Part shown: one piece after another, positions 31,610-53,615 of the stretch
Position numbering within the stretch: the first letter of the stretch is position 1
How the letters are laid out: every line of letters starts with the position of its first letter
IMG/VR virus record: IMGVR_UViG_3300035204_001483
Source of the DNA: an uncultured virus (IMG/VR IMGVR_UViG_3300035204_001483)
Taxonomy: Duplodnaviria; Heunggongvirae; Uroviricota; Caudoviricetes
Strand: one strand, 5' to 3'
Length of the DNA stretch: 64,000 nucleotides
The notes under the pieces: generated by a model
Seen by the model: only the letters and a program-made list of their open reading frames with translations
The model's database searches: none
Told to the model about the DNA's origin: nothing
Program-made: the position numbers and the translations under genes

Positions 31610-31813
31610 ATGAGAAAACCTAAGTTACACTTACATCTCAGAGTTCACGGAGAAGACGTCATTATTGATTACAAAAACGAAGACGTAATCTTTCCTAATA
31701 GGCCAGAAGAAGCAGACAAATTAAGATTCAACAAAATTGCCGCGATTTCTTCATACCTTAAAGAAGAAGGATTTTTAGATCATCTCCCCAACGAAGTAAT
31801 CGAAGCACCCTAA
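31610..31813 (+). CDS. Hypothetical early protein
   Basis: TTGACT (31575)-17-CATACT (31598) promoter places the start at ATG 31610. Confidence 0.6.
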   Translation: MRKPKLHLHLRVHGEDVIIDYKNEDVIFPNRPEEADKLRFNKIAAISSYLKEEGFLDHLPNEVIEAP

Positions 31814-31821
31814 ATAAGATT

Positions 31822-32028
31822 ATGAACGAACAATTACCACATTACTCACTAAGGTATGTTACATCTAAAGGTGAAGAAAAAGACTACAAAATCAGTCGCC
31901 CTTTTGACTTGTTAAAAGACGACAAAGGTCTAAACGTGGGCATCGTTGCTTATTGTTACGGCAAAGGCATACGCTCTTTTCGACACGAACGAATTCTAAA
32001 AATGGAACCGACAAAAATTCGTCTTTAA
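31822..32028 (+). CDS. Small WYL/Sm-like-fold protein
   Basis: LRYVTSKGE..AYC..IRSFRHERI resembles the WYL R(S/T)FR..RI motif. Confidence 0.5.
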   Translation: MNEQLPHYSLRYVTSKGEEKDYKISRPFDLLKDDKGLNVGIVAYCYGKGIRSFRHERILKMEPTKIRL

Positions 32029-32404
32029 TGCGACTGAAAGGTTTGGTCTCGGGGAGACTGAAAAATACCTCCCCCCCCTCGCCTCACGAATTCAATTTGA
32101 TCCGTTATTCGAAAAATAGGGCGGGCCTATTAAAATCGCAAAAAAATCGCCTAGTTCGGGAGCATGGAAGCTAAAATGAAGAGCCAGAAGGTGCCGCAGA
32201 CGATATTCCATAATGTAATGTCTTTTTTCATGTGTTTTTCTTTAAGTTTGCCACTTCGTAGAGCGCAAACCGACTAAACGGATCGGTCAAGCGAAAAAAT
32301 AGACCTTTTTTACACGAAAAGGCTTCTGAAAGCCGCAGCGGCGTTCCTAACCCCTAAAAAAAGTGTTGACAGGTCGGTATTTAGTCGATTATCCTATTCG
32401 GGAG

Positions 32405-32626
32405 ATGAAAAAACCTACTCGTTACCAAATCGGATGCCTGTATAAGGTCAAAGACCCTGATTCGCTCTGCGGTTATCAAATCGGACGTGCGAAAAGCGTA
32501 GAAAATGATGTGTGGACGCTCGAATCTTACGACGGTTCGACTTTTACCGTTCCCGCGAGTAAACTCCGCGTGGCAAAGAAGAAACAAATGAAGGAATTCA
32601 ATATAGTACGCACAGCGTACGCCTAA
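32405..32626 (+). CDS. Early cassette protein
   Basis: MKKPTRY.. starts just after the promoter; the track start lies inside the promoter. Confidence 0.7.
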   Translation: MKKPTRYQIGCLYKVKDPDSLCGYQIGRAKSVENDVWTLESYDGSTFTVPASKLRVAKKKQMKEFNIVRTAYA

Positions 32627-32729
32627 AAGCGTCGCTTCCGACCCAAAAGGGGTTACGGAAACCGCTGCGGTCTTCCAAACCCCTAAAAAAAGTGTTGACA
32701 GACTGATATTTTGGCTCTAGGATTCTCCC

Positions 32730-32939
32730 ATGAGTGAAACCTACGAACCTAATTCAGAAACCCCACTTAGCGCGAGCCTTGACGCGAAGCTTGACGCCGA
32801 ATTCGACGCCAGCACCATAAACTTGTTTAAAGCGCAAGTGGATGTGCTCGCTGACGAACATTTCACCGTCATCGATGAACTCTGTTACGAGGAAAACGAA
32901 AACGAAGACAGCTTCATGGATGGGCTCCGTGAAGAGTAA
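32730..32939 (+). CDS. Acidic MSETY-family early peptide
   Basis: Leaderless start; LDAK..EFDAST(I/L)NLF shared with 33636..33824. Confidence 0.75.
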   Translation: MSETYEPNSETPLSASLDAKLDAEFDASTINLFKAQVDVLADEHFTVIDELCYEENENEDSFMDGLREE

Positions 32940-33031
32940 TAACACATAAGGGGTTCGTCACCCCGCTGCGCGTTTCGTAACCCCTAAAATAATGCTTGAC
33001 GAATCGATATTTCCAAGCTACTATTTTCCCC

Positions 33032-33192
33032 AGTTAAGCGATGGCTGACTGGTTCCCGCCTAGAATTATCGCGGCACCGCCCCTCGTATGTCGTCGGGTG
33101 TAGATGCGAAAAAGTGCCTTAAGAACGCGGCCCAACATCGCTTTGGCTTCGCCTTCCCTAATGGTGGCGGTTCGACTCCGTGAGAACCATTA
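33032..33192 (+). ncRNA. Putative structured ncRNA occupying one cassette
   Basis: Promoter 32996/33019 with AGT instead of ATG at the usual start. Stems AAGCGATG/CATCGCTT, GGCAC/GTGCC, TAATGGT/ACCATTA; T-loop GGTTCGACTCC at 33169-33179. Confidence 0.5.
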
Positions 33193-33275
33193 AGGGGTAG
33201 CGCGAAGCGCAGCGGCTTTTCGAACCCCTAAAATGATGCTTGACAAATTGGTATTTGACAAGTATTATTCTCTAC

Positions 33276-33347
33276 ATGGAACCGATAGCAGGAATCCTAT
33301 TCGCGTACGTTATGACTCGCCTCGTGTATGGGTCTTTTAACAACTAA
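33276..33347 (+). CDS. 23-aa hydrophobic peptide MEPIAGILFAYVMTRLVYGSFNN
   Basis: Leaderless ATG after TTGACA-17-TATTAT. Confidence 0.55.
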   Translation: MEPIAGILFAYVMTRLVYGSFNN

Positions 33348-33362
33348 AAAAACCTACTAAAT

Positions 33363-33461
33363 ATGAAAAAAATTAATTGGGATATGTTTCTCGCAGCCTT
33401 TCAAACTGGCTTTATTCTTACCGCACTAGGCTTTGCCTTAATCGCCTTAGCATTAACGTAG
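33363..33461 (+). CDS. 32-aa membrane peptide MKKINWDMFLAAFQTGFILTALGFALIALALT
   Basis: Follows AAACCTACTAA box; one TM-like segment. Confidence 0.55.
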   Translation: MKKINWDMFLAAFQTGFILTALGFALIALALT

Positions 33462-33635
33462 TCCGTACTGCGTAATTTTTTTGAAATGAAAAAAAAGTTA
33501 CCCCCCTCCCCCCCTGTCGAATAAATACGGGGGGGATACGGGGGAGTAGCATAAGGGGTCACTGAAGCCGCAGCGCGTTTCGTAACCCCTAAAATAATTC
33601 TTGACGGATGGGTATTTATGCCGTAAGTTTCTCCC

Positions 33636-33824
33636 ATGAGTGAAACCTACGACCACCATAATCCTAACCTGGACGCCAAGTGTGACTTGGAGTTCGACGC
33701 CAGCACCCTCAACCTGTTTGAAGAGACCATCCAAGTGATGACTCTCGAAGGTGTGGAAGAAACCCCCGACGAACTCGAAGTAGTGCCATTCCGTCATTAC
33801 TACGATGAGCTTTTTGATGAATAG
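33636..33824 (+). CDS. Acidic MSETY-family early peptide
   Basis: Leaderless start; paralog of 32730..32939. Confidence 0.75.
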   Translation: MSETYDHHNPNLDAKCDLEFDASTLNLFEETIQVMTLEGVEETPDELEVVPFRHYYDELFDE

Positions 33825-33927
33825 CTAACACGCTCCAGACCCGAAGGGGTCACTGGGGCCGCTGCGCGTTTCGTAACCCCTAAAATAATGCTTGACGAAT
33901 CGATATTTCAGCCGTACTATTTCCCCA

Positions 33928-34194
33928 ATGAATGACCTACTGTTCAACCTTGTCCGTTTCTTTGTTCGCCGCTCTCAAGTCCTGCGCCCTGTGGTGCGTG
34001 CAGTCATGCCGCATGAGTGGCAGTGGTCTTTCAGTAGCTGGGTCTTTAGCCGTTCTCATGGCCCTGCCCACAGGTGGCCCAACTCTCGTTGGGTTAACCT
34101 CGTGTGCCACCGCCTTTACTGGCTCACCAATCTCAGGGGCGAAGACCCCACATATGGGTGGTGGTGGCGAGCTAAACGACGATTAGGTTTTTAA
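33928..34194 (+). CDS. Trp/Arg-rich early cassette protein
   Basis: Leaderless ATG; the stop codon overlaps the next element. Confidence 0.65.
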   Translation: MNDLLFNLVRFFVRRSQVLRPVVRAVMPHEWQWSFSSWVFSRSHGPAHRWPNSRWVNLVCHRLYWLTNLRGEDPTYGWWWRAKRRLGF

Positions 34195-34276
34195 GGGGTT
34201 AGTCACCCCGCTGCGCGTTTCGTAACCCCTAAAATAATGCTTGACGAATCGATATTTAAGCCGTACTATTCTCCCA

Positions 34277-34378
34277 ATGAACGACGACTTCAGAGATATT
34301 TACTTTGTTCTTATTGTCGGTATCGTATCATTTGTGGTGATACTAGCAACGGGCATTTACATCGAATCTATATCATGA
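34277..34378 (+). CDS. 33-aa membrane peptide MNDDFRDIYFVLIVGIVSFVVILATGIYIESIS
   Basis: Leaderless ATG; ATGA-coupled to 34375. Confidence 0.6.
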   Translation: MNDDFRDIYFVLIVGIVSFVVILATGIYIESIS

Positions 34379-34539
34379 AAAATAAAAACCTAACACGTAA
34401 AGAAATCCAGCAACTCAACGAACAAGATGCTAAAGTTAAGTGGTATCTTGAATTAACCATTGCGGCGTGCTTGGGTGCGGCCCTTGCTTTGAGCTTTGTA
34501 GTAGCTCACTGTATGCTCACCACTGAATGGACTTGGTAA
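34375..34539 (+). CDS. 54-aa membrane peptide
   Basis: ATGA overlap; TM-like C-terminal segment. Confidence 0.6.
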   Translation: MKNKNLTRKEIQQLNEQDAKVKWYLELTIAACLGAALALSFVVAHCMLTTEWTW

Positions 34540-34630
34540 AAGTGTGAAAGGGGTTCGCCACCCCGCTGCGCGTTTCGTAACCCCTACGATTCTGCTTGAC
34601 GGATCGATATTTAAGCCGTACTATTTCCCC

Positions 34631-34891
34631 ATGAGCAAGGTCAGAATGAACGTAGTTGGAACCACTAGGGAAATGAACATGGCAGCAGCCCAGTGCTGTG
34701 AGACATTCAATAAAGCCGTTATGAAATTTCGGGCTTTACAGTACGCTAATGACATGGGTACGGGCGGGCCTGATTTTGATGAATTAGAGAAATTCTTTAT
34801 CGAAAAGCAAGGATTATACGATTACCTAGAAAAGGGGTTCAATGTAGCGTGTGCCTCTGACCAAGAGGCTGGAGTAATCCCAAAGAAATAA
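34631..34891 (+). CDS. Early cassette protein
   Basis: Leaderless ATG; the stop codon overlaps the next element. Confidence 0.7.
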   Translation: MSKVRMNVVGTTREMNMAAAQCCETFNKAVMKFRALQYANDMGTGGPDFDELEKFFIEKQGLYDYLEKGFNVACASDQEAGVIPKK

Positions 34892-34972
34892 GGGGTTCAT
34901 AACCCCGCTGCGCGTTTCGTAACCCCTACGATTCTTCTTGACGAATCGATATTTAAGCCGTACTATTTCCCT

Positions 34973-35119
34973 ATGAGTATTGACCCTTATAGCGAGATGA
35001 CCTCCGAAGACCACGACGACATGTGTGCATGGTTCGATGACATGCGGCTCGATGAGCCTGTGTGTGATGATCCTGGTCTCCGGTGCAACTGTGAAGACTA
35101 CCCATGCTGTGGTCACTAA
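34973..35119 (+). CDS. 48-aa acidic peptide ending RCNCEDYPCCGH
   Basis: Leaderless ATG; paralog of 36388..36540; not in the ORF track. Confidence 0.75.
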   Translation: MSIDPYSEMTSEDHDDMCAWFDDMRLDEPVCDDPGLRCNCEDYPCCGH

Positions 35120-35178
35120 AGGGGTTCGCCACCCCGCAGCGGCCCCCGCAACCCCTTTGGGTTACGAGGACGCTGTGC

Positions 35179-35478
35179 CTACTGTATTTGTAATTGAGAA
35201 GGCGGGTTTGTAGCTAACCCCACTGGCAGCGGTGGCAATGGCGGAAGGCTCATTTTTACCGTTTGAGGGATAGGGGGAGCAATCGGAATCGCTACCACAC
35301 GAGCCTCTTCAAAAGAGAGTCGGAGGATAGGCATCGCAGCCTTGATTTGATAAAGGCGATAGGCTTCAGCCTTCGCCTTCTCATGAGTCACGCCCAATTT
35401 TTTTTGGGCTTTGATGTGGTTGGTTACTTGCGCGGCCTTGACCGCGTTACGAGCTTGATAAGTTTTGTAGGTCTTCAT
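35179..35478 (-). CDS. Early cassette protein with Pro-rich tail (inverted cassette)
   Basis: Minus promoter TTGACA (35517)-17-TACATT; start MKTYKTY. Confidence 0.65.
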   Translation of the reverse strand: MKTYKTYQARNAVKAAQVTNHIKAQKKLGVTHEKAKAEAYRLYQIKAAMPILRLSFEEARVVAIPIAPPIPQTVKMSLPPLPPLPVGLATNPPSQLQIQ

Positions 35479-35584
35479 TACGAGAAAGAATGTACAAGAA
35501 AAAGAGTTAACTGTCAAGGGAATTCGTAAGCCGCAGCGGCCCCTGCAACCCCTTCGGGTCGCAAGGGTGAGATGATATTTACAC

Positions 35585-35968
35585 TTAACAAGGGTCATAT
35601 TCTGGCACGCCCGCCTCCTGGACTTCCTCACTAAACGAACGGTCATTGCCTACGATTTCGCGAATTTCCTTTTCCACAAACGCCCGAAAGCCTTTATCCT
35701 GGTCGCAGTAACTCCATTCAATCTGCCCCAGGTCTATCCACTTGCCGCCCATGTTGGCTGAAACGTTAAAATGAAAAATGCTTATATCCTCAATTGCAAT
35801 GTCGGTCAATTCCATACCGACCCGATGGGTGGCTGGCCCTTGCGGCCCCTCATAATCGAAATCGCCATTTTCCCAGCAAGGGTCATATTCAAGCTCTCCA
35901 AAAACATACAAGAAGGTTGAATCGTTCAGCTTGATTTCTACATCCTCGAATTGATAGGTGTCACTCAT
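35585..35968 (-). CDS. Acidic early cassette protein (inverted cassette)
   Basis: TTGACA-17-TACCTT, leaderless MSDTY start. Confidence 0.7.
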   Translation of the reverse strand: MSDTYQFEDVEIKLNDSTFLYVFGELEYDPCWENGDFDYEGPQGPATHRVGMELTDIAIEDISIFHFNVSANMGGKWIDLGQIEWSYCDQDKGFRAFVEKEIREIVGNDRSFSEEVQEAGVPEYDPC

Positions 35969-36085
35969 GGGAATAAGGTACACGAACCCTGTGACGTTGT
36001 CAAGGGGTTTCTTAGGCCGCTGCGCGTTTCGTAACCCCTAAAAAAGTGCTTGACGGATGGGTATTTGGGCAGTACTATTTTCCCC

Positions 36086-36301
36086 ATGAGTGAAACCTAC
36101 AACGACCCTAATTCCAACCTCGACCCCCAAAGCTCTGATGATCGCCTTGCCAAAATCGGCTCAGAGGAGTATTACGATGAGAAGCCTGATTTCTCCTCAT
36201 CTACAATAGCCTATGATGGCTTTGAAGGCTGCTGGCCTGGTGACGGGTCTGGCATGGATGACCTAGCAGACTTTAATCAGATGGAGGGCGACGACTATTA
36301 A
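36086..36301 (+). CDS. Acidic MSETY-start early peptide
   Basis: Leaderless ATG; PNSNLD resembles 33636. Confidence 0.7.
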   Translation: MSETYNDPNSNLDPQSSDDRLAKIGSEEYYDEKPDFSSSTIAYDGFEGCWPGDGSGMDDLADFNQMEGDDY

Positions 36302-36387
36302 CATAAGGGGTTCGTCACCCCGCTGCGCGTTTCGTAACCCCTACGATTCTGCTTGACGGATCGATATTTAAGCCGTACTATTTCCCC

Positions 36388-36540
36388 ATGAGTAAAGACC
36401 CTTATAGTGAAATGACCGACCAAGACCATGCCGAAATGAGCGAATGGTTTGATGAAAGAGAGCAAGCTTTTTGGGATGATGGTGGCCCAGATAACTACTC
36501 ACGTTGCAACTGCGAAGACTACCCGTGCTGTGGTCACTAA
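36388..36540 (+). CDS. 50-aa acidic peptide ending RCNCEDYPCCGH
   Basis: Leaderless ATG; paralog of 34973..35119. Confidence 0.75.
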   Translation: MSKDPYSEMTDQDHAEMSEWFDEREQAFWDDGGPDNYSRCNCEDYPCCGH

Positions 36541-36624
36541 AGGGGTTCGCCACCCCGCTGCGAGTTTCGTGGTCCCTAAAGTAGGGCTTGACAAACCGAT
36601 ATTTAGAGCGTACTATTTCCCTAC

Positions 36625-36903
36625 ATGAAACCTAGAAACATAATCAGCAACGATGGGACAGGCCCATGCGCCGAAGGCGAGCCTTTCACCGTGCATCAAC
36701 ATATCATCACTAAAAACCATTGGGAGTATTATCTAGAAGAGACAGACAGTTGCGGCTTGTCCTTTGGCTATGTGATGGGCAACGAAAACGAATGGGGCAT
36801 GGTAGACATGGAAGAGATTGAGCCTCACGTCATAGGTAGAGCAAGGGAAAATGACTTGTGGCACATCATGCCACCTGAAGGCTATCGTTGGGAAGATGAA
36901 TAA
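36625..36903 (+). CDS. DUF2958-like early protein
   Basis: WEYYLEE..FGYVMGNENEWGMVDMEEI pattern. Confidence 0.55.
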   Translation: MKPRNIISNDGTGPCAEGEPFTVHQHIITKNHWEYYLEETDSCGLSFGYVMGNENEWGMVDMEEIEPHVIGRARENDLWHIMPPEGYRWEDE

Positions 36904-37715: not shown

Positions 37716-37813
37716 AATATTCTCCGTGGTTGTAGGTTTAACTAATGAAGATTAAAACATTTTTAAGTCTGATTGTCAAGGGAATTCGTAAACCGCTGCG
37801 GCTTCCCGCACCC

Positions 37814-38257: not shown

Positions 38258-38259
38258 AA

Positions 38260-38914: not shown

Positions 38915-39169
38915 TTAATAACCTCGCCTCCCATTTGGGTTAGCCTTATCATACTGAGGCTTAAGGCTTGAAGGTAAGGTATTAAGGATCGAATATATCT
39001 CATTCAAACGATCATGTGTCTGTTGAAGCAAGCCAACCGTAGACCTAAATCTCTTGACGCTATCTTCCGTTAGGTTAATCCCGTTAATTAGGTTCTCCAT
39101 CTGATCAGAAAGATCAGAGGCTTGTTTGGTTAGTTCGATTACGTCTGTTGTAGGTTTCTTTTCGCTCAT
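38915..39169 (-). CDS. Coiled-coil early protein
   Basis: Own promoter TTGACG-17-TAGTAT. Confidence 0.65.
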   Translation of the reverse strand: MSEKKPTTDVIELTKQASDLSDQMENLINGINLTEDSVKRFRSTVGLLQQTHDRLNEIYSILNTLPSSLKPQYDKANPNGRRGY

Positions 39170-40182: not shown

Positions 40183-40635
40183 GATTAGGTTTTCTTTCTT
40201 GGGTTTAGGGTTCGTCTAACTGGTAAAGATTAAACCATATATCGGATTAAGTGTCAAACCTTTTTTCACCTCACTGGATAGATTCTTTTCCCCCCCCCTA
40301 ACCCCTTGCGAAGCAAGGGGTTGCGTAGGCCGCTGCGGCCTCACGAGCCCCTATACAATGAGACTTAACCCAATGCCCTTAATTGTTAGAGTTATTTAAC
40401 TATATTTAATTTGCCAAAAATTGCTGTATTTCACTGTTATTCTACCCCAGAGTTTCTTATATAAGGGGGATTTCTCCGATGAGAAAATGGGGGTATTTAA
40501 GAAATTGCGTTGGTTAGAATGATTACGGGCAATATGCCTTTCCGAAAACTCCTCCCGCTTAACTTCTAGAGAGCAAAATGATAAAACCTCTCTAGCTAAT
40601 AAGCATCATTCTTTACGATGCCAACGCTCACCGTT

Positions 40636-41655: not shown

Positions 41656-41859
41656 TTAAATCCAATCTTGCTTTGAGTCTCCGCTGATACCATGCCTCTG
41701 GCATAAATCGTCCCACTCCATACTGTTATAGGTTGAGTTGCGAGATTGAGTATCAACCACCATTTCTTTTAGATGGTTTGTGAGTTCGCCTATGTCCTCG
41801 AATTGAATTCTGACGTACTTATCGGTAGATTGCCTTGGAGGTTTTCTTGTAGGTTTCAT
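41656..41859 (-). CDS. Early protein
   Basis: Leaderless MKPTRKP after TTGACA-17-TATAGT. Confidence 0.6.
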   Translation of the reverse strand: MKPTRKPPRQSTDKYVRIQFEDIGELTNHLKEMVVDTQSRNSTYNSMEWDDLCQRHGISGDSKQDWI

Positions 41860-42575: not shown

Positions 42576-43367
42576 CTAAGCCACCTCCATTTCTTTGCGT
42601 TTGCTGTACCCGTTCCAGCCTCTGCGTTTTAGTTCTTGAATTGCTTGGCTTGCTGCGCTGCCCTTTGGCTGTGTGCCATGAATGAGTAGAGCAAAATTCT
42701 TTTTTCCAAATGCTGCATGGTAATCATCATGGTCAATCTCAAAACCCATTGCGTCGGCTTCTTCTTCACTATAAACAACCTCGGCATACTTTAGACCATG
42801 CTCCACAATAAGCGCGTCATGCTTGCCGCCGAAAGATGCGGTCAGTACAAAGTTTGAAGGAATAGAATCAAAACGATGTACCCAAAAGTTCAAGCTCTTT
42901 GTGTACGCATAAAAATGCTTGTTGGGGTTACGTCGTGCAACTTCCATCCACGCATCAAAATAAACCTGTGAAAAGAAATCACCACCCACATGGACACGCA
43001 TGATGTCAAACTTTTTGGGAAGCATCGACTCTAGTAAATCGGCAACCTCTTTTGCCTGATTCTTTTTGTATCGCCATGCGTTGAGGAGAACGTTTTTGAT
43101 AGCCTCAAAATTACGCCACACCATTGCGCGTGTGTTTTTATACTGTGATTCGCTACTCGCCGCAAAGCAACGAAATGCTGTGTGTGGGCCGTCTGTAATC
43201 TTGCCCGTTGTCCTGTCCGCTTTAGACAAGCAATCTTTTGCTGCTGGACACGTCCACCCGCTAGGGAGGGTGAAAGATTTAATAGTTAAACCGAGCCGCT
43301 TCGCCATCGCAATTAACTTTGCGTTAGCTTGGGAAAAGGTTAGAGCTTGGGGTTGTGTAGGTTTCAT
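42576..43367 (-). CDS. Phage gp88-like protein
   Basis: SFTLPSGWTCP..C..CFA, RVHVGGDFFS, FYAYTKS. Confidence 0.7.
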   Translation of the reverse strand: MKPTQPQALTFSQANAKLIAMAKRLGLTIKSFTLPSGWTCPAAKDCLSKADRTTGKITDGPHTAFRCFAASSESQYKNTRAMVWRNFEAIKNVLLNAWRYKKNQAKEVADLLESMLPKKFDIMRVHVGGDFFSQVYFDAWMEVARRNPNKHFYAYTKSLNFWVHRFDSIPSNFVLTASFGGKHDALIVEHGLKYAEVVYSEEEADAMGFEIDHDDYHAAFGKKNFALLIHGTQPKGSAASQAIQELKRRGWNGYSKRKEMEVA

Positions 43368-44323: not shown

Positions 44324-45289
44324 TTATACATGAGTTTTATCTAGTTCTACTAGGTAGTTACGCCCTTTTTGAGTGATGTTCCTGCCTTTAGTTGTGATCT
44401 CCATGAGGTCGTGACTCTGAAGAAACAATTCGTAATCACACCGTAAGGATTGAACAGTCAACTTTACTTTTGTGCCGAGTTTAGTGAGCGAAACATCTCG
44501 ACAGTCACGTAATACTCGCAGCACCCTCACCTCTTTCGGGCGTAAACCTAAAGGAGTAATGCCTAGAGTGCCAGTTAACGCTTTCCAATCCTTACGGGTA
44601 AATTTAGAAAGTTTGCCGTTGGCATCTAAATACATCTGGATATTAATTGCCATCTTTTGGGCAGCGCGTGGGTTGCCACGCAACACAGAAGCGATTTCCT
44701 CTGGTAGTCCATCTTCAAATTCTACTTCACTTAAATTAAGTAAAATGATCTCCCCCAACTCCTCATGGCTGTAATCTTCAAGGTCAACTCTATCCAACCT
44801 ATCCATGAGAGCGTGAAATACCTTATGAGGTTCGCTCGTAGCAAATAAGAAAGTCTGACGACGAAAATCAAAATCAAACGTAAACTCATCCCAACTAAAA
44901 GAATTACGGTTTTGGGGATTAGGGTTAAGAATAGAGAGCATAACCATCTCAACATCTGGAGGAATCTCGCTCGCCTCATCAAAAAGAACGGTTACGTCCC
45001 TGTCGTGAACTTTAGGAATAATTAACTCATCAAAAAATGCTTTGGTATTCTTAATGGAAGCGCAATTAACTTCGCAATACTTTTTGGGTTTATCTTCTCC
45101 GCTTTTAACTAACTCTTTTGCTAGAGCTTTAGCTATAAGTGTTTTGCCGCACCCCTTTGACGCAGTAAACATCATGTTTGGAATCAATCCTGCTTTTTCG
45201 TAGGAATCAATATAGAAGTCTAACTTTCGTTTAGCTTGCGGTTGGCCTATAATGCCATCAAATCGTGAAGAGGTGTAGGTTTCGCTCAT
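44324..45289 (-). CDS. ruvB: RuvB-like Holliday junction AAA+ ATPase
   Basis: FDGIIGQ, GCGKT, LFDE, ALMDR, RGNPRAA, LGITPLGL, TTKGR: RuvB order of motifs and length. Confidence 0.78.
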   Translation of the reverse strand: MSETYTSSRFDGIIGQPQAKRKLDFYIDSYEKAGLIPNMMFTASKGCGKTLIAKALAKELVKSGEDKPKKYCEVNCASIKNTKAFFDELIIPKVHDRDVTVLFDEASEIPPDVEMVMLSILNPNPQNRNSFSWDEFTFDFDFRRQTFLFATSEPHKVFHALMDRLDRVDLEDYSHEELGEIILLNLSEVEFEDGLPEEIASVLRGNPRAAQKMAINIQMYLDANGKLSKFTRKDWKALTGTLGITPLGLRPKEVRVLRVLRDCRDVSLTKLGTKVKLTVQSLRCDYELFLQSHDLMEITTKGRNITQKGRNYLVELDKTHV

Positions 45290-45730: not shown

Positions 45731-45731
45731 T

Positions 45732-46460: not shown

Positions 46461-46904
46461 CCTCCCCCAAAATAAGTCTAATACTATACAAATGCTCAAA
46501 AAAACTAAAAATACCTCCAAAATCTTTAAAATATGTAAATATTGTACCATATCCTGTACCCCTATACAAGCTTATTTTTGAACAAAAAAACCACATATTT
46601 AAGTCTCACTGTTTTGCGGGGAAAATAAAAAACCCGCCGCAAGCACTAGGCCCGCAGCGGGCTTCTGAAGCATACCAGCCTGTGGGGCTGGCAGAAGATA
46701 AGCTCCATAACGAGGTTCAGGGTGGTCTGTCCCTCGCTGAAATATTATATATTTAATCAAAAAACATTCAAAAAAAAATGCCCCTCCAAAATAGAGAGAC
46801 ACTTTATAGAGATGATACCCATAAGACTAAAAGTCTTTAGATAAGTATCCTATATTTAAATTAATTTTATTCTAATTTTTTTTATCCACGATTTTTTCAT
46901 CCCT

Positions 46905-47113
46905 ATGTTATAATCCTCATACTTAAAGTAATCGATGACCCTGCGTGTTTTAATCCTCTAATACTTAAAATTTTGCTTGGTACTCAATATGTTGTAATCC
47001 TCTTATACACCTTCGCGCCATAATGTTATAATCCTCTAATACTTATGAAGACGGGTTTGTATGGACATTTTTAACCGTGGTCTTCAGTGACTCGTCAGAT
47101 GTTGTAATCCACT
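46905..47113 (-). repeat. Cluster I of (A)GAGGATTACAACAT-type repeats (5 copies)
   Basis: Plus strand RTGTTNTAATCC(T/A)C at 46905, 46945, 46989, 47023, 47099. Confidence 0.8.
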
Positions 47114-47272
47114 ACAAAGAAGTATACCACGCACGTTATTTCGAGTCAAGAAGATTTGTGGGGGATTTTAATATATTTTAAATAATTTTAATTTGTGGGG
47201 GATTTGTCGATCACTGGTGAGTGGCTACTTATTTAGACAATCAAAATTTGCAGAAAATGAGTGACAAAATAA

Positions 47273-47521
47273 TTATCTTTTTATTCTTCTGTAATTTTTT
47301 GACCAGATGATATTGCACATCTCATTAGCAGTTTGGTCTACTCTAGTCTCTGACCAGTTAGGATTATAGATATGAAGCATTTCATGTATTAAGACATTTA
47401 AAAATTGTTTACTTTTTAATCTGCCATCTATTTCTATTTTATCTTCTCCTACCCACGCCAAACCAAGGGCTTTCTCCCTGCCAAGAGGCCGCTCAACTAC
47501 TTTGATTTTCTTCTTAGCCAT
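47273..47521 (-). CDS. Small HExxH metallopeptidase-like protein
   Basis: GLA..IEIDGRL..LIHEMLH. Confidence 0.65.
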   Translation of the reverse strand: MAKKKIKVVERPLGREKALGLAWVGEDKIEIDGRLKSKQFLNVLIHEMLHIYNPNWSETRVDQTANEMCNIIWSKNYRRIKR

Positions 47522-47544
47522 ATAAATATATACACTTTATGAGC

Positions 47545-47573
47545 TTGACATATGCTAAAAATACAGATATAAT
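47545..47573 (+). promoter_or_regulatory. Perfect consensus sigma70 promoter
   Basis: TTGACA-17-TATAAT. Confidence 0.65.
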
Positions 47574-47930
47574 GAGTATCTGGGATATATATAAACCAGC
47601 CACTCCTTTTTTTAAAATTTTTTAATCAATAAATCATGTATTCCCTTATATATACTACCTCTTATACACATGAACATTAAAGACTAAATCGTGTCGTTTT
47701 GTGGGGAAAAGTGGGGGAAAGTGTAGGTTTCTGTGGATTTGAGGGAGTGCAGGTTTAGGGCGAGTGTTCTAACAATAAAGAAAATAACACATTCTTAATT
47801 CAATGCAAGTTAATACTCTCTTTTATATGCTAATTACTTCCGTTTGGCCTTGTTTATGCCCTCTATCCATGCGCTAATAAACCACCAAGTTATCAATCCA
47901 AGATAAATTGCCCCGCCAAGATTTTCCATG

Positions 47931-48365
47931 TCACTTCCTTTCTCTTAGCTTAAAGAACTTGTGATTGCCTATAATTTTTACAGGTTTACTTGTGCGAGTC
48001 CAATAATTGTGAGTCTTTAATGTGCAATAATGGTCTGCGTTCTTAACGTAAGACAACTGTAAACGACTCAAATTAATAGCTAAAAATTTAGCATAAATCC
48101 CCTGCGGAGTCTTTAATGAGTGAGATTCTTTACCGTCATTCCAGCAAGAAAATTGCCGCTTTTGTAAACAGACTTGTGCTGGGGTTATCTTCCTATTTTT
48201 GGAACGTTGTTGAATAACACAAGCTACAGCATACATACCCGCTTTACCCTCACCTCTGGCCTCCCCCAAAATTGTGAGTGCCACAATCCTTTGGCTACGT
48301 GTTAACGCCGTATCTGCTTGAACAAATGGCGCAACAAATAAAATAAAAGCTATGATTCTTTTCAT
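47931..48365 (-). CDS. Cell wall hydrolase, SleB/Hydrolase_2 family
   Basis: Signal peptide, TILGEARGEG, QFSCWN, IGNHKFF. Confidence 0.88.
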   Translation of the reverse strand: MKRIIAFILFVAPFVQADTALTRSQRIVALTILGEARGEGKAGMYAVACVIQQRSKNRKITPAQVCLQKRQFSCWNDGKESHSLKTPQGIYAKFLAINLSRLQLSYVKNADHYCTLKTHNYWTRTSKPVKIIGNHKFFKLRERK

Positions 48366-48610
48366 TTTAGTGGGATGTTCACCTTGAAACCATCCTTTTC
48401 CATTTGAGCATCAAAATCCTCGTCATAGGTGTCTATGCCCGACATGGCCTCCAGATACTCATCAGTCTCAAAGACCTCTCTAATGCGCTTCTGGAGGGCA
48501 TTAATAACCGCTCCCTTCTCATGCTTGAGGCAGTCATACCAATCCTCATACTTACTCATAGGAACCGCAAATGCTATGTCAAATGCGTGGTTGTATCTCT
48601 TTTCTTTCAC
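48362..48610 (-). CDS. Hypothetical protein
   Basis: ATGA-coupled to the hydrolase gene. Confidence 0.55.
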   Translation of the reverse strand: MKEKRYNHAFDIAFAVPMSKYEDWYDCLKHEKGAVINALQKRIREVFETDEYLEAMSGIDTYDEDFDAQMEKDGFKVNIPLK

Positions 48611-48659
48611 TGTTTACCTTTCTTTTTTAGTCCTCGTTTGGTTGTCCAGACGAGGATGC

Positions 48660-48775
48660 GTGTTGTAATCCTCTTGGAAAACTGCGCCTTCTGTGTCCTA
48701 ATCCTCTTAAAGCCTCTAACAAGGTCAGTGTTTTAATCCTCTAATCAATTACTTCTTTCTTTGTCGTAATCCTCA
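48660..48775 (-). repeat. Cluster II of the same repeat (4 copies, 33-35-bp period)
   Basis: Copies at 48660, 48693, 48728, 48761. Confidence 0.75.
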
Positions 48776-48942
48776 TTGACCCTTTCTCGATCTCCTAATT
48801 TTCCGCTGCTCCATTTATCGTACAAATCCCATGCTTCGTCAGCCCATTTTTTGCCATAGACCTTCTGCTTCTCTGCGAGGTAGACCACCACCTCATCGTA
48901 GGGAGTATTTTCGTAAACTTTAATGAGGTCTGTTGTTGTCAT
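48745..48942 (-). CDS. Hypothetical protein
   Basis: 65-aa ORF. Confidence 0.5.
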   Translation of the reverse strand: MTTTDLIKVYENTPYDEVVVYLAEKQKVYGKKWADEAWDLYDKWSSGKLGDRERVNEDYDKERSN

Positions 48943-48967
48943 AATGTCTCGATATAAATTCCTGTCG

Positions 48968-49180
48968 CTAGTCCTCTTGGTCTAAATCCCATTCTCCCAA
49001 CGCATACTCCAATACCTCTTCAAACGATTGCCCGTGTTCGTTCGCTTCTACTGCTGCATTTAACGCACTCCACATCACTTCTGCCTCCAACCCCCAAGGT
49101 CGCGCTGCTTTTAGAGCCTGTTCCACCAATTGTATCTTAGCTGGCCTTGGATTGGTTGCGTCTATGTCTTTGAGTTTCAT
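48968..49180 (-). CDS. Conserved phage hypothetical protein
   Basis: GLEAEVMWSAL..ALGEWDL pattern. Confidence 0.6.
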   Translation of the reverse strand: MKLKDIDATNPRPAKIQLVEQALKAARPWGLEAEVMWSALNAAVEANEHGQSFEEVLEYALGEWDLDQED

Positions 49181-49228
49181 AAATCAGCTAAGGGGTAATG
49201 TTGTAGTCCTCTTCTAATTCGTTATTCC

Positions 49229-49456
49229 TCATCGCTCTATCTTTTCAAAGCGTTTCGCTTTATTCTTGCTTCTTTTCTTGCTTGTAGTCGTCTCATGTAA
49301 CGCGATATAGTCTTCACCTTTGTAATCCTCTATGGTGATACTTTTGTACACAAGATTTTTTGCTCCTTCTCGATGCAATAAGTCGTACATCTTCGGCTCG
49401 CTGGTAGCGCAACCAGTTATAGTTAGGACAGTTAATAATATAATAATTTTTTTCAT
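49229..49456 (-). CDS. Putative lipoprotein
   Basis: MKKIIILLTVLTITGC lipobox. Confidence 0.55.
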   Translation of the reverse strand: MKKIIILLTVLTITGCATSEPKMYDLLHREGAKNLVYKSITIEDYKGEDYIALHETTTSKKRSKNKAKRFEKIER

Positions 49457-49888
49457 TCTTCTTCTTCTCTTACTACTTCGCACCACTCTTTACAATCCCT
49501 GCAAATAGCGACATCATCACCAGCGGGGTTGTACACTGGTGAGCCACAACAACTACTAATCTCACCTGTTAAAAAATAGTCTGAGTAGTCCATGCTCATT
49601 GCAAATCTCTCTCTTATTCGTCTAACTCGTAAAGAGTGTTAGTTACCGCTTCTTCTAGCTTGTCTGGCATTGACGACGCGCCTTCTGGGTACTGCTCGTA
49701 GATCGCCTCTAACAGTTTATCAACCGTTTCCTTACTTACCGTATTGAACGAGTCTCTTTGTCCTAACATCTTTCCGTCTTTCTTTTAAATTTTAAAAAAC
49801 TTTTATAAGCTAGGAGCATCGAGAGAAGGAAGTGGAAGCTCCCGATGCTCCCGTTTGGGGGGTCTCCACCCCTCTAGGCTTGGGCAGC

Positions 49889-50701
49889 CTACATCTTCGG
49901 GGGCGGTAAAGGTGGAGACAGTAAAGTCGTTTCTCCCGTATCCGCATTATAATGACCTTGATAGTATGTATCTACTATTGGCTCTTCCAGAGCGCGAGAG
50001 AATACGCCAACCACCTTGTACTTCGCTGTACGGAGTTTCTGGCACTCACAATCCTTCGGGACACTCACAACGTCCGTAGGGTCAATTTCGACCACTACAA
50101 CGTGACTTTGATCGCCTCCGAAACTTTGCGCGTAATCCAAACTCCCCGCATGGAAACCATACGAACAGCCAATGTCGGCATCATCACACACTGTATTACG
50201 ATGCATCTCATGCGTTTGCCCGACCTTGTTGGAGAACGTGCCTGAGTAATGGTCAGTCCAATCACGCCTCAGACTTTTGTAAGCGAGAAAATTGCCATCG
50301 GGCGTAAAAGGCATATTCTTGTGCCGCAAAAACGTATACAATTCGTTTACAGCGCGGCGTGAAGGATTTGCCATGAGCTTATCCAAGAACTTTAACAGGG
50401 GGCGAAACGGACTCCCCATTTGAATTAATTGCAAGATGCGCTCAGTCACCACATTATGGACTGGTAAATCCTTATACTTAAGGATTCCGTTATCAATAAT
50501 GATATTACCTTCTGAAAGACCTGTGATTGTTGCTGGAATATCCAGCGCGGCTTTAAGCCCATCCCAATCCTGTGCCAACAAAGCCGCTTTTGCGACTTGC
50601 CAATTCGGATGCTCTAAACGAATTGTGTACGACTGACCTTCCTCATTTGGGGTATAGGTAAGTGAATTTGGTGTTAATATAAAACTGTGATCTTCTAACA
50701 T
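49889..50701 (-). CDS. rIIB: RIIB-like protein
   Basis: LYTFL..TPDGNFLAYK, CSYGFHAG, IDPTDVVSVPKD..KLRT. Confidence 0.85.
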   Translation of the reverse strand: MLEDHSFILTPNSLTYTPNEEGQSYTIRLEHPNWQVAKAALLAQDWDGLKAALDIPATITGLSEGNIIIDNGILKYKDLPVHNVVTERILQLIQMGSPFRPLLKFLDKLMANPSRRAVNELYTFLRHKNMPFTPDGNFLAYKSLRRDWTDHYSGTFSNKVGQTHEMHRNTVCDDADIGCSYGFHAGSLDYAQSFGGDQSHVVVVEIDPTDVVSVPKDCECQKLRTAKYKVVGVFSRALEEPIVDTYYQGHYNADTGETTLLSPPLPPPKM

Positions 50702-50709
50702 AATTCCTC

Positions 50710-50955
50710 CTAGTTTCTTTCTTTTAATTTGATTATATCTTTTTTTTGTCCATCAAACTTTTTGTAGATCACCCAACCTACGTGACGCTCAGAATCTTGA
50801 CCGCCCTCCATGACATCACCAAAGTGATCCACATTAAAATCGAACATCTTGCGAGTTTCGCCTTCGCCCCAAAGAAACCCAACTAGAGTAACCTTAAAAC
50901 CGATGTCACGCTTATACCTTACTTGAGCTTCGGTATCTTTCAATGTGCCTTTCAT
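50710..50955 (-). CDS. Hypothetical protein
   Basis: 81-aa ORF after the promoter at 50990. Confidence 0.55.
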   Translation of the reverse strand: MKGTLKDTEAQVRYKRDIGFKVTLVGFLWGEGETRKMFDFNVDHFGDVMEGGQDSERHVGWVIYKKFDGQKKDIIKLKERN

Positions 50956-50976
50956 TACGAGTAGTATGCCAGATTC

Positions 50977-51294
50977 TTAGTTCCTGTCAAGCTTTTTGTG
51001 GTAGTTTTCTAAATACTCTAATTCCTTTTCTACATCCTCTGGATTAAGCCACCCCTTTACTGAATCATGCCAAGCTTCAACTTTCATCATCCTTTCTCCC
51101 CCCGCATAGAATACTCCCATTTCGTATAATCCTACTTCGTGACCGTGAGAAGCTCCATGCTGCACCACCGATACTTCAAGACCATTCGGTAAATTTACGT
51201 AAGCTTGAATGGGGTCAATGTGCTTACTTTCAACCTTAAAGCTTCTGCCGTACTCTTCGGGCATCGGCTCAAATTCTAGATCGTCGAATTTCAT
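50977..51294 (-). CDS. Conserved phage hypothetical protein
   Basis: PNGLEVSVV..GLYEMGV..VKGWL pattern. Confidence 0.65.
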   Translation of the reverse strand: MKFDDLEFEPMPEEYGRSFKVESKHIDPIQAYVNLPNGLEVSVVQHGASHGHEVGLYEMGVFYAGGERMMKVEAWHDSVKGWLNPEDVEKELEYLENYHKKLDRN

Positions 51295-51323
51295 AATCTT
51301 TTTTTTAAAATTTTAATTAGAAG

Positions 51324-51398
51324 GGGGCAGGGAGAGATGACCTACTAACTCCCCCCACCCCTGAGTTGCCCTGCGAGAAACCTACTAATCGCAGGACA
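51324..51398 (-). ncRNA. Twin-hairpin RNA element downstream of rIIA with UUAGUAGGU loops
   Basis: TGTCCTGCGA-TTAGTAGGTTTC-TCGCAGGGCA and GGGGTGGGGGGAG-TTAGTAGGTCAT-CTCTCCCTGCCCC; fully paired only on the minus strand (G.U pairs). Confidence 0.6.
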
Positions 51399-51404
51399 GA
51401 TTGT

Positions 51405-53549
51405 TTAATTACATTCATCCAGTTGCACCATGTTGTTGCAGAGTGCTTTTAAAGCTATGTTCTCTCTATCGTAATAGCCGTCAACAGTGACGTGCTTTAC
51501 GAGAGGGTAATCCTCCTCAACTTGCTTGGCGAGGTCTTTTAGCTCAACATTTTTTTCTTTCTTAACCTTCTTGAGTTTGAATCCCCAATTCCGAGCAAGG
51601 TTTTCAAATTTCGTTACCTCTGCTTTGTCTGTTGATGATTCGTGAAAGTCACGTTGGACTTTAACGTAGGAGTGATCTTCACCGAGAATCTCTTCGGCTA
51701 TATCCAACTTGTTCTCTCTAAGGAACCAATCACGCTCAACACCATCTACTTGGCTAATCAAGCTTGCCTTTGTTGGGATGTCTTTTTCTTCCGCAATGTC
51801 CAAAACATGATCCGCAACCCACTCATGAAGTTCAATCCAGTTGGGATTGTCTTTCAGCTTTTTAGCTGCGACCTTGGTAAAGCCGATAATTTTTTCTGGC
51901 ATATTGTCTGCACCAAGTAGATTTTCAATCTCATGAATTTGATTATGAAAGTTATGCGGTTCACTGTAAGGATAACCTTCTGGCCTTTGGACAACGTACC
52001 GACTGATCTCAACGAACACTCCTTCATCTTCCTCAAGATCAATCTCAGTCGCAGTCCAACGATCACGCCACTTAGACCAACGGTAACAATCTTGATCATA
52101 CTCAAAAGTCTTTTGTACAGTGCGAGTCTGAGTGGAAACCGAACTATTCTTTGGCGGCTTCGGTAAATCTTTTAGCGAAAGCATTTCCGCATCAAAACCC
52201 ATCTCTTTGCAGATTTCTTTTTCTGACTTGAGTTTCGGTTCACTAGGAGTGCGGTGAGTATTCTCACTAAAGTTAATAAGGTAAACCTTACGTCCTTCTT
52301 CTTTCTGTTGTAGGTAAGTGATTTTACCCAAAGCTCCACGAACGTGACCGACATCATTCTTTACTATCACGATTTTCTCACGGGGTTCAATCGTTGTTCC
52401 CTGTTTGAACCTTATGTTGCCCCCGCTGGTTTTCTTCGTTGAACGAACGGTAACGTGGTCGTAATTGTAAAAATTATACTGAGAGTTTTTGATTTTCTCA
52501 CCGTTAAAGGTGATGTTCTCTTTCGCCCAAGTTGATAGTTGGTACAGTGAGCTACCGTAGTCGCAAATTTCTCCCATCAATCGTTTTGCGTCCCACATCG
52601 TTTTGCAGTTGTCGAATTTTTCTTCTACTTTTTTCTGCAACTCAGCGTTAACTTTTTTAAGTTTTCTAACGAGGTTTGTCTTTGTACGATCAGTCATTTC
52701 CAAAGCTTCACGACTTGCTGTGATGCTCAACTCTCCGATTTCACACTCGACAATGAGATGCCCGTTAACAATCTCCTTTAGATTTCTCTCTAAGCTCAAT
52801 TCGTCTGGATCAAAACCGTAAGGGATTCCACCCATTACCGCTGTCGGATCAGAGTAATTTGAAGCCTCTTTAATATACTTCCAGTTGTCGCCCTCAAAAA
52901 GTACGTCCACCTTAATCTCATCAATTTCGTGGTCTGAAAGACCATGAATAACTGGCTTTACTTTAAAATGTTTATATAATTTAATCGCCTTCTCGCTAAA
53001 TTCCTCGCAATCATCAACGTCTACGCCAATAACGATTTCAACACCATCCCTTTCGTTGGTATCGCTTGCTCCAAGCTTAGAAATTTGACCGACTTTCGTT
53101 TCGTCAATAAATGCCGTATGAACGTGTTTCACCCCATTAATGTAAGAGTTAATTACAAAGCTATCACCGTAGGCAAATGCCGATTTTGAACCAAGACCAA
53201 GCATACCAATTTGCTCGTTGCTGTTCCGCTTGGTAGACTCACCGTAATTCGCGTAAACATCTTTAATCTCTTCATCGTTTAGGGATGGGCCAAAATCACG
53301 AACCTTAAAAACGGGGTCTATAACGGTTGGCAACGTCACTTCGATGGGAATATCGCCATTACCAGCCTCTTTGTTGGCGTCTACCGCATTGGCTGAATAC
53401 TCACGAATAACTGCCCCAATCTTATCAGAGTAAAGTTGATTCCGTAAAACGTTGAAAATGTGGGAGAGTCCACTCTTTTTAATTCCAAAAGCAACTGAGG
53501 TTTGAACGCCGTTAGTTTGGACTTCGATTTTTTCGTCTATGACTTTCAT
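51405..53549 (-). CDS. rIIA: RIIA-like protein (GHKL ATPase N-terminus)
   Basis: LYSDKIGAVIREYSANAVDA, VRDFG, YGESTKR..GLGSKS, ASREAL; rIIB nearby. Confidence 0.88.
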   Translation of the reverse strand: MKVIDEKIEVQTNGVQTSVAFGIKKSGLSHIFNVLRNQLYSDKIGAVIREYSANAVDANKEAGNGDIPIEVTLPTVIDPVFKVRDFGPSLNDEEIKDVYANYGESTKRNSNEQIGMLGLGSKSAFAYGDSFVINSYINGVKHVHTAFIDETKVGQISKLGASDTNERDGVEIVIGVDVDDCEEFSEKAIKLYKHFKVKPVIHGLSDHEIDEIKVDVLFEGDNWKYIKEASNYSDPTAVMGGIPYGFDPDELSLERNLKEIVNGHLIVECEIGELSITASREALEMTDRTKTNLVRKLKKVNAELQKKVEEKFDNCKTMWDAKRLMGEICDYGSSLYQLSTWAKENITFNGEKIKNSQYNFYNYDHVTVRSTKKTSGGNIRFKQGTTIEPREKIVIVKNDVGHVRGALGKITYLQQKEEGRKVYLINFSENTHRTPSEPKLKSEKEICKEMGFDAEMLSLKDLPKPPKNSSVSTQTRTVQKTFEYDQDCYRWSKWRDRWTATEIDLEEDEGVFVEISRYVVQRPEGYPYSEPHNFHNQIHEIENLLGADNMPEKIIGFTKVAAKKLKDNPNWIELHEWVADHVLDIAEEKDIPTKASLISQVDGVERDWFLRENKLDIAEEILGEDHSYVKVQRDFHESSTDKAEVTKFENLARNWGFKLKKVKKEKNVELKDLAKQVEEDYPLVKHVTVDGYYDRENIALKALCNNMVQLDECN

Positions 53550-53615
53550 GTAGGTTTCTTTTTTTCGTAGGTTTTCGTTTCGTTAAAGAAGACTATACCA
53601 CCGTCTTGTTTCCTG

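Follow-up and report, generated by a model that had tools for sequence, protein, structure and literature searches.

The passage of a phage from early to middle gene expression is known mostly as the work of proteins, through sigma-factor appropriation, repressors and, in T4, the protein repressor RegA and the GGAG-specific endoribonuclease RegB, which shut off early mRNAs. The c4 antisense RNA of phages P1 and P7 shares a transcript with its target, and two exposed segments of it pair with two sites that cover the ribosome binding site; differences between the P1 and P7 RNAs are matched by differences in their targets. Enterobacterial small RNAs (sRNAs) from 3′ untranslated regions (3′UTRs) are processed from mRNA 3′ ends, have a terminator hairpin as their last element and use single-stranded, Hfq-bound seeds against Shine-Dalgarno (SD) regions. 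The downstream box, defined by complementarity to 16S rRNA, is an element just after the AUG that was proposed to affect initiation. Here we describe a 64,000-nt stretch of DNA (the window) from an uncultured virus of the Caudoviricetes (IMG/VR record IMGVR_UViG_3300035204_001483), in which a short box, (A/G)ACCTAC, recurs at the starts of presumed early genes and two hairpins directly behind the phage gene rIIA carry its complement, the anti-box, in their loops. The complementarity is conserved among related phages, the hairpin stems covary, and box and loop change in a coordinated manner between phages.

Pairing between the two ends of an mRNA has been described for single bacterial transcripts. 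In icaR mRNA, a 3′UTR motif pairs with the initiation region of its own mRNA, blocks the initiation complex and creates a substrate for RNase III (PMC3868564). In the hbs mRNA of Bacillus subtilis, a 14-bp pairing of the 5′- and 3′-UTRs modulates RNase Y cleavage in the leader (PMC5737220). No description of a box and anti-box system was found in the literature searched, supplements excluded.

RESULTS

A sequence box at the translation starts of early genes

The initial annotation of the window listed copies of the box at the beginnings of a number of early genes, and every one of them was recovered at its place or a few bases away. The form ATGAG(T/C)GAAACCTAC occurs at 32730, 33636 and 36086 on the plus strand and at 45289 on the minus strand, and near matches are found at 31610 (AACCTAA), 35968 (CACCTAT) and 36625 (AACCTAG). 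Copies in leaders are AACCTACTAA before the gene at 33363 (box at 33351), one before 37715, two before rIIA and AACCTAATC before the DUF932 gene. The commonest extended box is GAAACCTAC, which precedes or forms 8 of the 12 window boxes. In the whole window RACCTAC, that is (A/G)ACCTAC, is present 27 times against 11.92 ± 3.48 expected from 100 shuffles, none of which reached this number (maximum 21), and 21 of the 27 copies lie within 31.6-53.6 kb.

The region is rich in sigma-70-like promoters of the form TTGAC(A/G)-N17-TAnnnT with an ATG 6-7 nt further on, so that transcripts should begin at or beside the start codon. The terms early and leaderless are used here for genes that presumably have these properties as judged from promoter geometry, and a gene was scored as strictly leaderless when TTGAC-N16-18, a -10 box, N4-9 and ATG followed each other. 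Enrichment near early starts had been named as the check on the box, and it was found: 9 of the 23 strictly leaderless genes of the window carry [AG]ACCTA[CA] within their first 30 nt, where the chance is about 0.006 per gene (binomial 6e-15). For AACCTAC, 14 of 21 copies fall within ±40 nt of the first ATG of open reading frames (ORFs) of at least 40 codons, a zone to which 13% of positions belong (binomial 2e-8). Across nine related genomes the box AACCTAC is start-proximal (-15 to +25) in 53 of 128 cases. One-base variants, which serve as an internal control in the same genomes, are start-proximal in 3/48 (ATCCTAC), 1/34 (ACCCTAC) and 2/61 (AGCCTAC) cases, together 6/143.

Three reading frames are used by the box (GAA-ACC-TAC, AAA-CCT-ACA and GAC-CTA-CTG) and it also stands in untranslated leaders, which supports the earlier proposal that selection acts on nucleotides and not on the protein. 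In leadered genes its position tracks the start codon, not the promoter, and the start-proximal boxes all have the same orientation relative to transcription. Because the genes at 32730, 33636 and 36086 are paralogous they were counted as one event; at least 11 unrelated box loci remain, among them those of an AAA+/RuvB_C protein, a GP88-family protein, DUF932 and rIIA. An SD-like core is found upstream of only 12/43 long ORFs in the window and 32/123 in its closest large relative (contig G002, see below).

Two hairpins behind rIIA display the complement of the box

A shared regulatory target had been one of the two meanings suggested for the box, and the same window offers a concrete form of it. 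The 110 nt between the rIIA stop codon and the next gene fold as two hairpins (51324-51398, minus strand), with a predicted energy of -40.7 kcal/mol and a z score of -3.7; none of 200 shuffles was as good. The stems of the two hairpins differ, and both 12-nt loops start with UUAGUAGGU. Loop 1, UUAGUAGGUUUC, is the reverse complement of GAAACCUACUAA, and loop 2, UUAGUAGGUCAU, is the reverse complement of AUGACCUACUAA, so that both loops complement the box plus its flanks (GAAACCUAC, AUGACCUACU). AGAAACCUAC, which abuts the rIIA AUG, and loop 1 can form an uninterrupted run of 10 Watson-Crick pairs. In the gene at 33928, 10 nt of ATGACCTACT match loop 2, and RNAduplex gives -15.6 kcal/mol for hairpin 2 with the 5′ end of this gene (AUGAAUGACCUACU). 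For 10 of 25 leaderless 5′ ends the duplex with the loops reaches -11 kcal/mol or better; when the loops are reversed, 1 of 25 does so.

An Rfam scan of the whole window at the gathering threshold matched only a tmRNA, and a permissive scan of 46700-51500 gave nothing at the hairpins. The hairpins have no conserved promoter of their own: an upstream TTGACG sits in coding sequence that differs among relatives. The positions of the hairpins and of the box-bearing genes are collected in Table 1.

Table 1. Box-bearing translation starts, rIIA and its 3′ hairpins in the window
Feature	Position	Strand	Remarks
rIIA gene	51405..53549	-	714 aa; PHROG 612 RIIA, E = 3e-116; boxes at 5′ end and anti-box hairpins at 3′ end of its mRNA
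rIIA promoter	53592..53619	-	TTGACA-16-TATAGT; 11/12 matches in promoter scan; predicted leader of ~35 nt, without SD
Two rIIA leader boxes, AACCTAC	53567-53573 and 53550-53556	-	second abuts ATG (AGAAACCTACATG)
Hairpin 1	51367..51398	-	6 nt past rIIA stop; 10-bp stem; 12-nt loop UUAGUAGGUUUC at 51377-51388
Hairpin 2	51324..51361	-	13-bp stem; 12-nt loop UUAGUAGGUCAU at 51337-51348; U-rich tract next
ATGAGCGAAACCTAC, leaderless start of AAA+/RuvB_C-like gene ('ruvB' of the initial annotation)	45275..45289	-	duplex -13.0 kcal/mol
ATGAAACCTAC, leaderless start of GP88-family gene	43357..43367	-	duplex -12.7 kcal/mol
ATGAAACCTAC, leaderless start of 67-aa gene	41849..41859	-	two box copies at this gene in G002
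AACCTAA variant, 2 nt upstream of DUF932 start	40185..40191	-	same leader in G002: GACCTAC
ATGAGCGAAAAGAAACCTAC, leaderless start of 84-aa gene	39150..39169	-	duplex -12.9 kcal/mol
Box in leader of 127-aa gene starting at 37715	37732..37738	-	leader copy listed initially, present
ATGAAGACCTAC, leaderless start of MKTYKTYQARNA (MKTYKTY) protein	35467..35478	-	box shifts between two Thr-Tyr pairs in orthologues
ATGAAAAAACCTAC	32405	+	box listed initially, present
ATGAATGACCTAC	33928	+	box listed initially, present
Cluster of small leaderless genes	31610..36100	+	boxes at 31617 (AACCTAA), 32412, 32738, 33351, 33644, 33934 (GACCTAC), 36094

Conservation of box and hairpins among related phages

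The window belongs to a large phage that encodes rIIA, rIIB, PhoH, a large terminase and collagen-like tail fibres. A megablast search with the window found no close match among cultured phages, and its best protein matches are at 24-29% identity for rIIA and 24-26% for the terminase. The nearest records are a 29.5-kb near-identical fragment (G001) and a 158-kb IMG/VR contig (G002), which is 91% complete and encodes an rIIA 58% identical to that of the window. Other relatives come from marine metagenomes, with rIIA identities down to about 35%. These related rIIA loci (L numbers below) were retrieved with an rIIA alignment as query; a query with a single rIIA protein gave no match.

In G002 the box again follows the ATG in 7 of 27 leaderless genes; five genes there show ATGAAACCTAC, and the clamp-loader orthologue shows ATGAGCGAAACCTAC. 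In most relatives the rIIA start is flanked by AACCTA(C/T), which ends 0-4 nt before the ATG and occurs again at codons 2-6; the upstream copy often reads AACCTATG and takes the usual SD position. The nucleotides of the AAA+/RuvB_C-like start ATGAGCGAAACCTAC are identical in the clamp-loader orthologue of G002, the two proteins being 73% identical. Among clamp-loader orthologues the N-termini are unrelated, and still the box is there, located either within the opening codons or in the leader immediately ahead of the ATG. The orthologues of the MKTYKTYQARNA protein keep the peptide constant, with ACC-TAC at the first, the second or both Thr-Tyr positions; ACC-TAC accounts for 9 of 14 pairs and is kept at least once in 7/7 phages, compared with 10-17% usage in ordinary Thr-Tyr dipeptides. 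These patterns support selection on nucleotides at the translation start. Over 44 distinct rIIA loci, box and anti-box are both present in 25 and both missing in 8, while 8 have only the box and 3 only the anti-box (Fisher 0.009, uncorrected for phylogeny).

The hairpins lie directly behind rIIA in relatives with 58-79% rIIA identity. An alignment of 8 relatives (58-100% rIIA identity) was used for covariation analysis, and 98.4% of its cells are paired. The loop of hairpin 1 is invariant in all eight, and the 10 pairs of its stem are all kept, 4 of them with both sides changed. Loop 2 reads UUAGUAGGUCAU in L132 as it does in the window, and relatives of about 60% rIIA identity have UUAGUAGGUUUC at this place. 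Taken over both hairpins, 9 of 23 stem pairs are changed on both sides, compared with an average of 4.7 in shuffles, of which 1/500 reaches 9. The covariation score is 0.455 versus 0.274; it was not equalled in any of 500 shuffles and is also above that of all slid registers.

A covariance model of the element matches at rIIA 3′ ends only. Of the 42 sources searched, 20 give a match, scoring 20-93 bits, and among these 20 are two pairs with identical coordinates and scores. The matches include relatives with 35-43% rIIA identity, and no second copy of the hairpin element was detected by the model in the window or in the 158-kb contig. In a survey of 80 viral loci (1.4 Mb) for stems of 8 bp or more (G-U pairs allowed) that enclose GTAGGT in their loop, 16 of the 18 hairpins on the rIIA strand lie within about 70 nt of the rIIA stop, in 11 loci. 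One of the remaining two is a hairpin with an 8-bp stem elsewhere in L230, and the other is counted in the total without being listed; four further such hairpins are on the strand opposite rIIA. The first anti-box and the rIIA stop codon (UAG) overlap in several relatives. A scan of IMG/VR for two TTAGTAGGT copies 20-50 nt apart returned at least 124 stretches; from the spacing and the repetition of the matches, these are probably chance occurrences or repeats in coding sequence.

Three likenesses of the loop sequence to known RNA elements were considered and rejected as resemblance only. Most loops carry AGGU and not the GGA of CsrA-type decoys; Shine-Dalgarno mimics have nothing beyond AGGU in common with them; and GUAGGUU, which resembles the 5′ half of a tRNA T-arm, is in the loop of the hairpins and not in the stem. 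In one clade (L210 12290-12366, also L211) a tRNA-Met (CAU) follows directly after rIIA, at the place where other clades have the anti-box hairpins. The T-arm of this tRNA in L210, GUAGGUUCAAGUCCUAC, contains both GUAGGUU and CCUAC, which may be a coincidence or a hint at the origin of the element. Between hairpin 2 and the next gene (window 51295-51323) stands an A/T block, AATTAAAA(A)TTTTAAAAAAA, conserved in the window, L132-L142 and G002 and possibly a later-class promoter.

Coordinated change of box and loops

In 24 distinct phages the longest complementarity at the rIIA start has a mean of 9.42 with the phage's own loops and 8.50 with the loops of others, and none of 20000 permutations reaches the former value; the complementary run with the own loop is typically 10-12. 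Where the loop deviates, so does the box in several lineages. In the phage L151/L216 the loop is GUAGGAUUU, the rIIA leader contains GAAAUCCUAC and the leaderless clamp-loader gene has AAAUCCUAC at its start, the combination of AAAUCCUAC with this loop being seen in G013; this phage holds 2 of the 3 start-proximal ATCCTAC copies of the nine genomes. In L158/L218 the loop GAUAGGUUG is matched by CGACCUAUCGA, in L152 the loop UGUGGUAG(G) by CCUACCACA, and in L266 UUUUAGGUC by AAAACCUAAA. The flank of the box follows the loop as well: where the phage has ...GGUUU loops, a C precedes AACCTAC in 1 of 32 boxes, and where it has ...GGUUG loops, in 9 of 23 (Fisher 9e-4). Variants compatible with G-U pairing are tolerated, such as AACCUAU with GUAGGUU.

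DISCUSSION

Proposed role of the hairpins

The position of the boxes, the sequence of the loops and their coordinated change suggest, and we hold with moderate confidence, that RNA-RNA pairing masks the starts of translation, acting in cis on rIIA and in trans on other early mRNAs. The box (G/A)AAACCUAC(U), located within about 15 nt of the start codon, would be the mRNA half of the pairing system, carried by rIIA and by roughly a third of the leaderless early mRNAs. The hairpins would be made as the 3′ end of the rIIA mRNA, their loops UUAGUAGGUUUC and UUAGUAGGUCAU displaying the complement, and pairing of loop to single strand over 9-12 nt would cover the translation initiation region within the ribosome footprint. 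In cis, the 5′ and 3′ ends of the rIIA mRNA would be joined, the two boxes around the AUG meeting the two loops past the stop. The remaining boxed early mRNAs would be reached in trans by the RNA that bears the hairpins. We infer that the hairpins would be transcribed and accumulate, that the pairing would take place in the cell, and what the sign of its effect would be. The likeliest outcome would be a shut-off of translation, perhaps together with cleavage of the duplex. Leaderless initiation is determined in part by how accessible the start codon is (PMC8459731), and repression is favoured because of this role and because of the icaR precedent (PMC3868564). Alternatively, the pairing could protect or stabilise the 5′ end, as in hbs. 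In leadered genes the box follows the AUG and not the transcription start, which fits an effect on translation initiation.

A wider proposal is possible, which we put forward tentatively and with more doubt than belief. The double hairpin may be the master antisense regulator of a widespread lineage of uncultured marine phages, with a kissing-type pairing of 9-12 nt that closes the rIIA mRNA and governs a leaderless early regulon. If true, this would be a phage timing switch made of RNA and not of protein, and the first known case of an RNA regulator directed at leaderless starts. In a bolder form, the pairing could pass terminating 70S ribosomes straight to start codons that have no Shine-Dalgarno sequence or leader, an idea that arises because the anti-box lies at or on the rIIA stop codon.

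Several observations weigh against masking of starts by the hairpins. The difference between own and other loops is modest (9.42 versus 8.50) and was obtained among phylogenetically related sequences. For targets other than rIIA, complementarity extends past the 7-nt core by 3.07 nt with own and 2.53 nt with other loops, a comparison of few cases that carries no significance figure. Some loci do not conform: in L163/L172 the rIIA leader has AUCCUAC, yet the loops are of the GUAGGUU type; L231/L239 have a box at rIIA and no anti-box within 110 nt of the stop; and in L215 the anti-box is present and the box is weak. The near-constant cores of box and loop in very divergent phages are also compatible with recognition of one of them by an unvarying factor of host or phage. 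A single rIIA transcript would need to serve a dozen mRNA species, and a helix of 9-10 bp within a 12-nt loop would be sterically tight. The hairpins were not called by a consensus terminator scan because their loops are 12 nt, and the tract after hairpin 2 is U-rich but interrupted. Phage and host are both uncultured.

Alternative explanations for the box

The initial annotation considered the box as a translation enhancer for leaderless mRNA, which would recruit the ribosome to mRNAs without SD through an rRNA segment or a ribosomal protein. This could coexist with masking by the hairpins; as the explanation of the box we regard it as unlikely. The box is inside the ribosome footprint, either at the SD position (0-4 nt before the rIIA AUG, where no SD is present) or at +5 to +20 of leaderless mRNAs, SD-like cores are scarce in these genomes, and CA-rich downstream sequences are reported to enhance leaderless translation. 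The near-constant core over 35-100% rIIA identity is also what a signal imposed by the host would give. However, only 9/23 leaderless genes in the window and 7/27 in G002 carry the box, not most of the class, and with about a third of them boxed it is not a general requirement for leaderless translation. To our knowledge GUAGGUU is absent from the universally conserved segments of 16S rRNA; a pairing with helix 45 would match at 5 of 7 positions. An enhancer would moreover leave the invariant complement in two hairpin loops and the lineage-specific coordinated changes unexplained, the rIIA hairpins being then an rRNA-like decoy, an anti-enhancer or unrelated. An enhancer role is not needed to explain the data, and it is possible as a second role. 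The complementary loops and their coordinated changes also stand against a protein operator, in which a RegA-like protein of phage or host would bind single-stranded AACCUAC at starts and repress an early subset that includes rIIA, the hairpins being a separate matter. The constant core across phages and a short motif that overlaps or abuts the AUG in such a subset, as in T4 RegA operators, agree with this, but a protein that binds AACCUAC cannot explain conserved GUAGGUU loops. The RegA family PF01818 was found in none of five genomes (G002, G010, G003, G009, G012), a result of little weight because control genomes were also unmatched. Altogether we consider such an operator improbable.

Recognition at the DNA level would require a DNA-binding protein that acts, as roadblock or regulator, on AACCTAC downstream of early promoters and at the rIIA 3′ end. 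Double-stranded DNA holds box and complement together, so one protein could bind all sites, and boxes do cluster near promoters. Against this, the start-proximal boxes are uniform in orientation, the box tracks the ATG at variable promoter distance in leadered genes, and G-U-compatible variants make sense for RNA and not for DNA. The sites behind rIIA are exactly in the loops of hairpins with covarying stems, which indicates an RNA structure. Altogether a DNA site is very improbable. The last option is that the box has no function and hitch-hikes on duplicated or recombined cassettes of promoter plus N-terminus and on shared N-terminal peptides. Cassette duplication does occur, as seen from the paralogous genes at 32730, 33636 and 36086 and from plus-strand promoters with near-identical spacers. 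This explanation is largely refuted by the non-paralogous loci (at least 11, in three frames and in leaders), by clamp-loader orthologues in which unrelated N-termini are boxed in coding sequence or leader, by the rarity of one-base variants near starts (6/143 versus 53/128) and by the synonymous relocation of the box in the MKTYKTY gene, and we give it hardly any credence.

Other features of the window

Between 32990 and 37000 on the plus strand, about ten promoters share nearly one 17-nt spacer and discriminator, TTGACG-(A/G)ATCGATATTTAAGCCG-TACTAT-TTCCCC-ATG. Each precedes a small leaderless ORF, which resembles a tandemly duplicated cassette of promoter plus start; mobile early-promoter cassettes are known from T4-type phages. 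The small gene at 36625 has ATGAAACCTAGAAAC, a near-box, and its orthologue at 32033 in G002 has ATGAAACCTACAAAACCTAGAAAC, where an extra 9-nt unit creates a perfect box. This pair appears to be an example of box gain or loss through a three-codon indel.

A non-coding element, CCACAGAAACCTACAC...CCCCAC(T)TT(T)CCCC, with the box inside, is conserved at 47690-47770 (minus strand) of the window, near 1127 in G001 and near 43750 in G002. Neither a promoter nor an ORF is obvious in its vicinity, and it may represent one more RNA with the box. A 15-22-nt unit, (A)GAGGATTA(C/T/A)AACA(T/C), recurs five times with spacings of 34-76 nt at 46905-47113 (minus strand), in an AT-rich stretch without ORF directly behind a promoter TTGACT-N17-TATACT (47149-47121). 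A pair of ATTTGTGGGGGATTT repeats is found just upstream (47154-47205). The array could be an untranslated repeat RNA or an iteron array.

An open frame of more than 2766 aa occupies 2-8299 (minus strand) and continues past the end of the window. Together with neighbours of 1111 aa and 1050 aa (collagen-like) it forms a structural block almost without PHROG matches. A full-length tmRNA gene lies inside the phage region at 57791-58201 (minus strand; Rfam RF00023, 148.7 bits, gathering score 47). ARAGORN calls it too and predicts an unusually long tag ending in ALVA. The tmRNA could aid host identification and suggests phage interference with translation.

Comparison with known systems

A conserved 3′UTR RNA matched to many early starts would be a different mode of timing phage expression. 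It would widen pairing between 3′UTR and 5′ end from single bacterial mRNAs to a multi-gene phage regulon, and it bears on how mRNAs that offer no leader as a target can be regulated. The element is a marker of a large family of uncultured marine phages; the hypothesis is compact and testable by compensatory mutations. Box plus anti-box also provide a simple signature for annotating early genes in these genomes.

As in icaR and hbs, a 3′UTR segment is complementary to the initiation region of its own mRNA, and both partners are conserved and change together, with L163/L172 and L231/L239 as counter-examples. The likeness to icaR is in the arrangement, rIIA having two boxes around the AUG and two complementary loops just past the stop. 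However, the icaR motif UCCCCUG mimics an anti-Shine-Dalgarno sequence and targets the SD, whereas the box is not an SD and is often on leaderless mRNAs. The predicted rIIA system is moreover a phage system, with the anti-box displayed in two hairpin loops, and the same box on about a dozen other mRNAs implies action in trans, which is a further difference from icaR. With hbs the rIIA mRNA shares long-range pairing of both ends of one mRNA that would modulate its fate; the pairing in hbs affects stability and not masking of the start codon, and it concerns a single mRNA and no regulon.

As expected of a trans-acting RNA, the element is a structured RNA with exposed segments complementary to several mRNAs. 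In this it is close to c4, also a structured phage RNA with matched changes of RNA and target in some lineages. In contrast to c4, which controls one operon (icd/ant) in lysogenic immunity, the candidate described here is in the rIIA 3′UTR of a lytic-type phage and faces many early mRNAs. Like T4 RegA and RegB, it would exert post-transcriptional control over an early subset including rII genes through a short sequence at the start site, but the candidate effector is an RNA and not a protein. It resembles enterobacterial 3′UTR sRNAs in being a regulator at an mRNA 3′ end, and downstream-box or CA-rich enhancers in using an element just after the AUG; the seeds of those sRNAs differ in being single-stranded, Hfq-bound and directed against SD regions. 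What is new compared with 3′UTR-5′ pairing and with P1 c4 is a non-SD box on mostly leaderless mRNAs, two complementary loops at the rIIA stop and many apparent targets.

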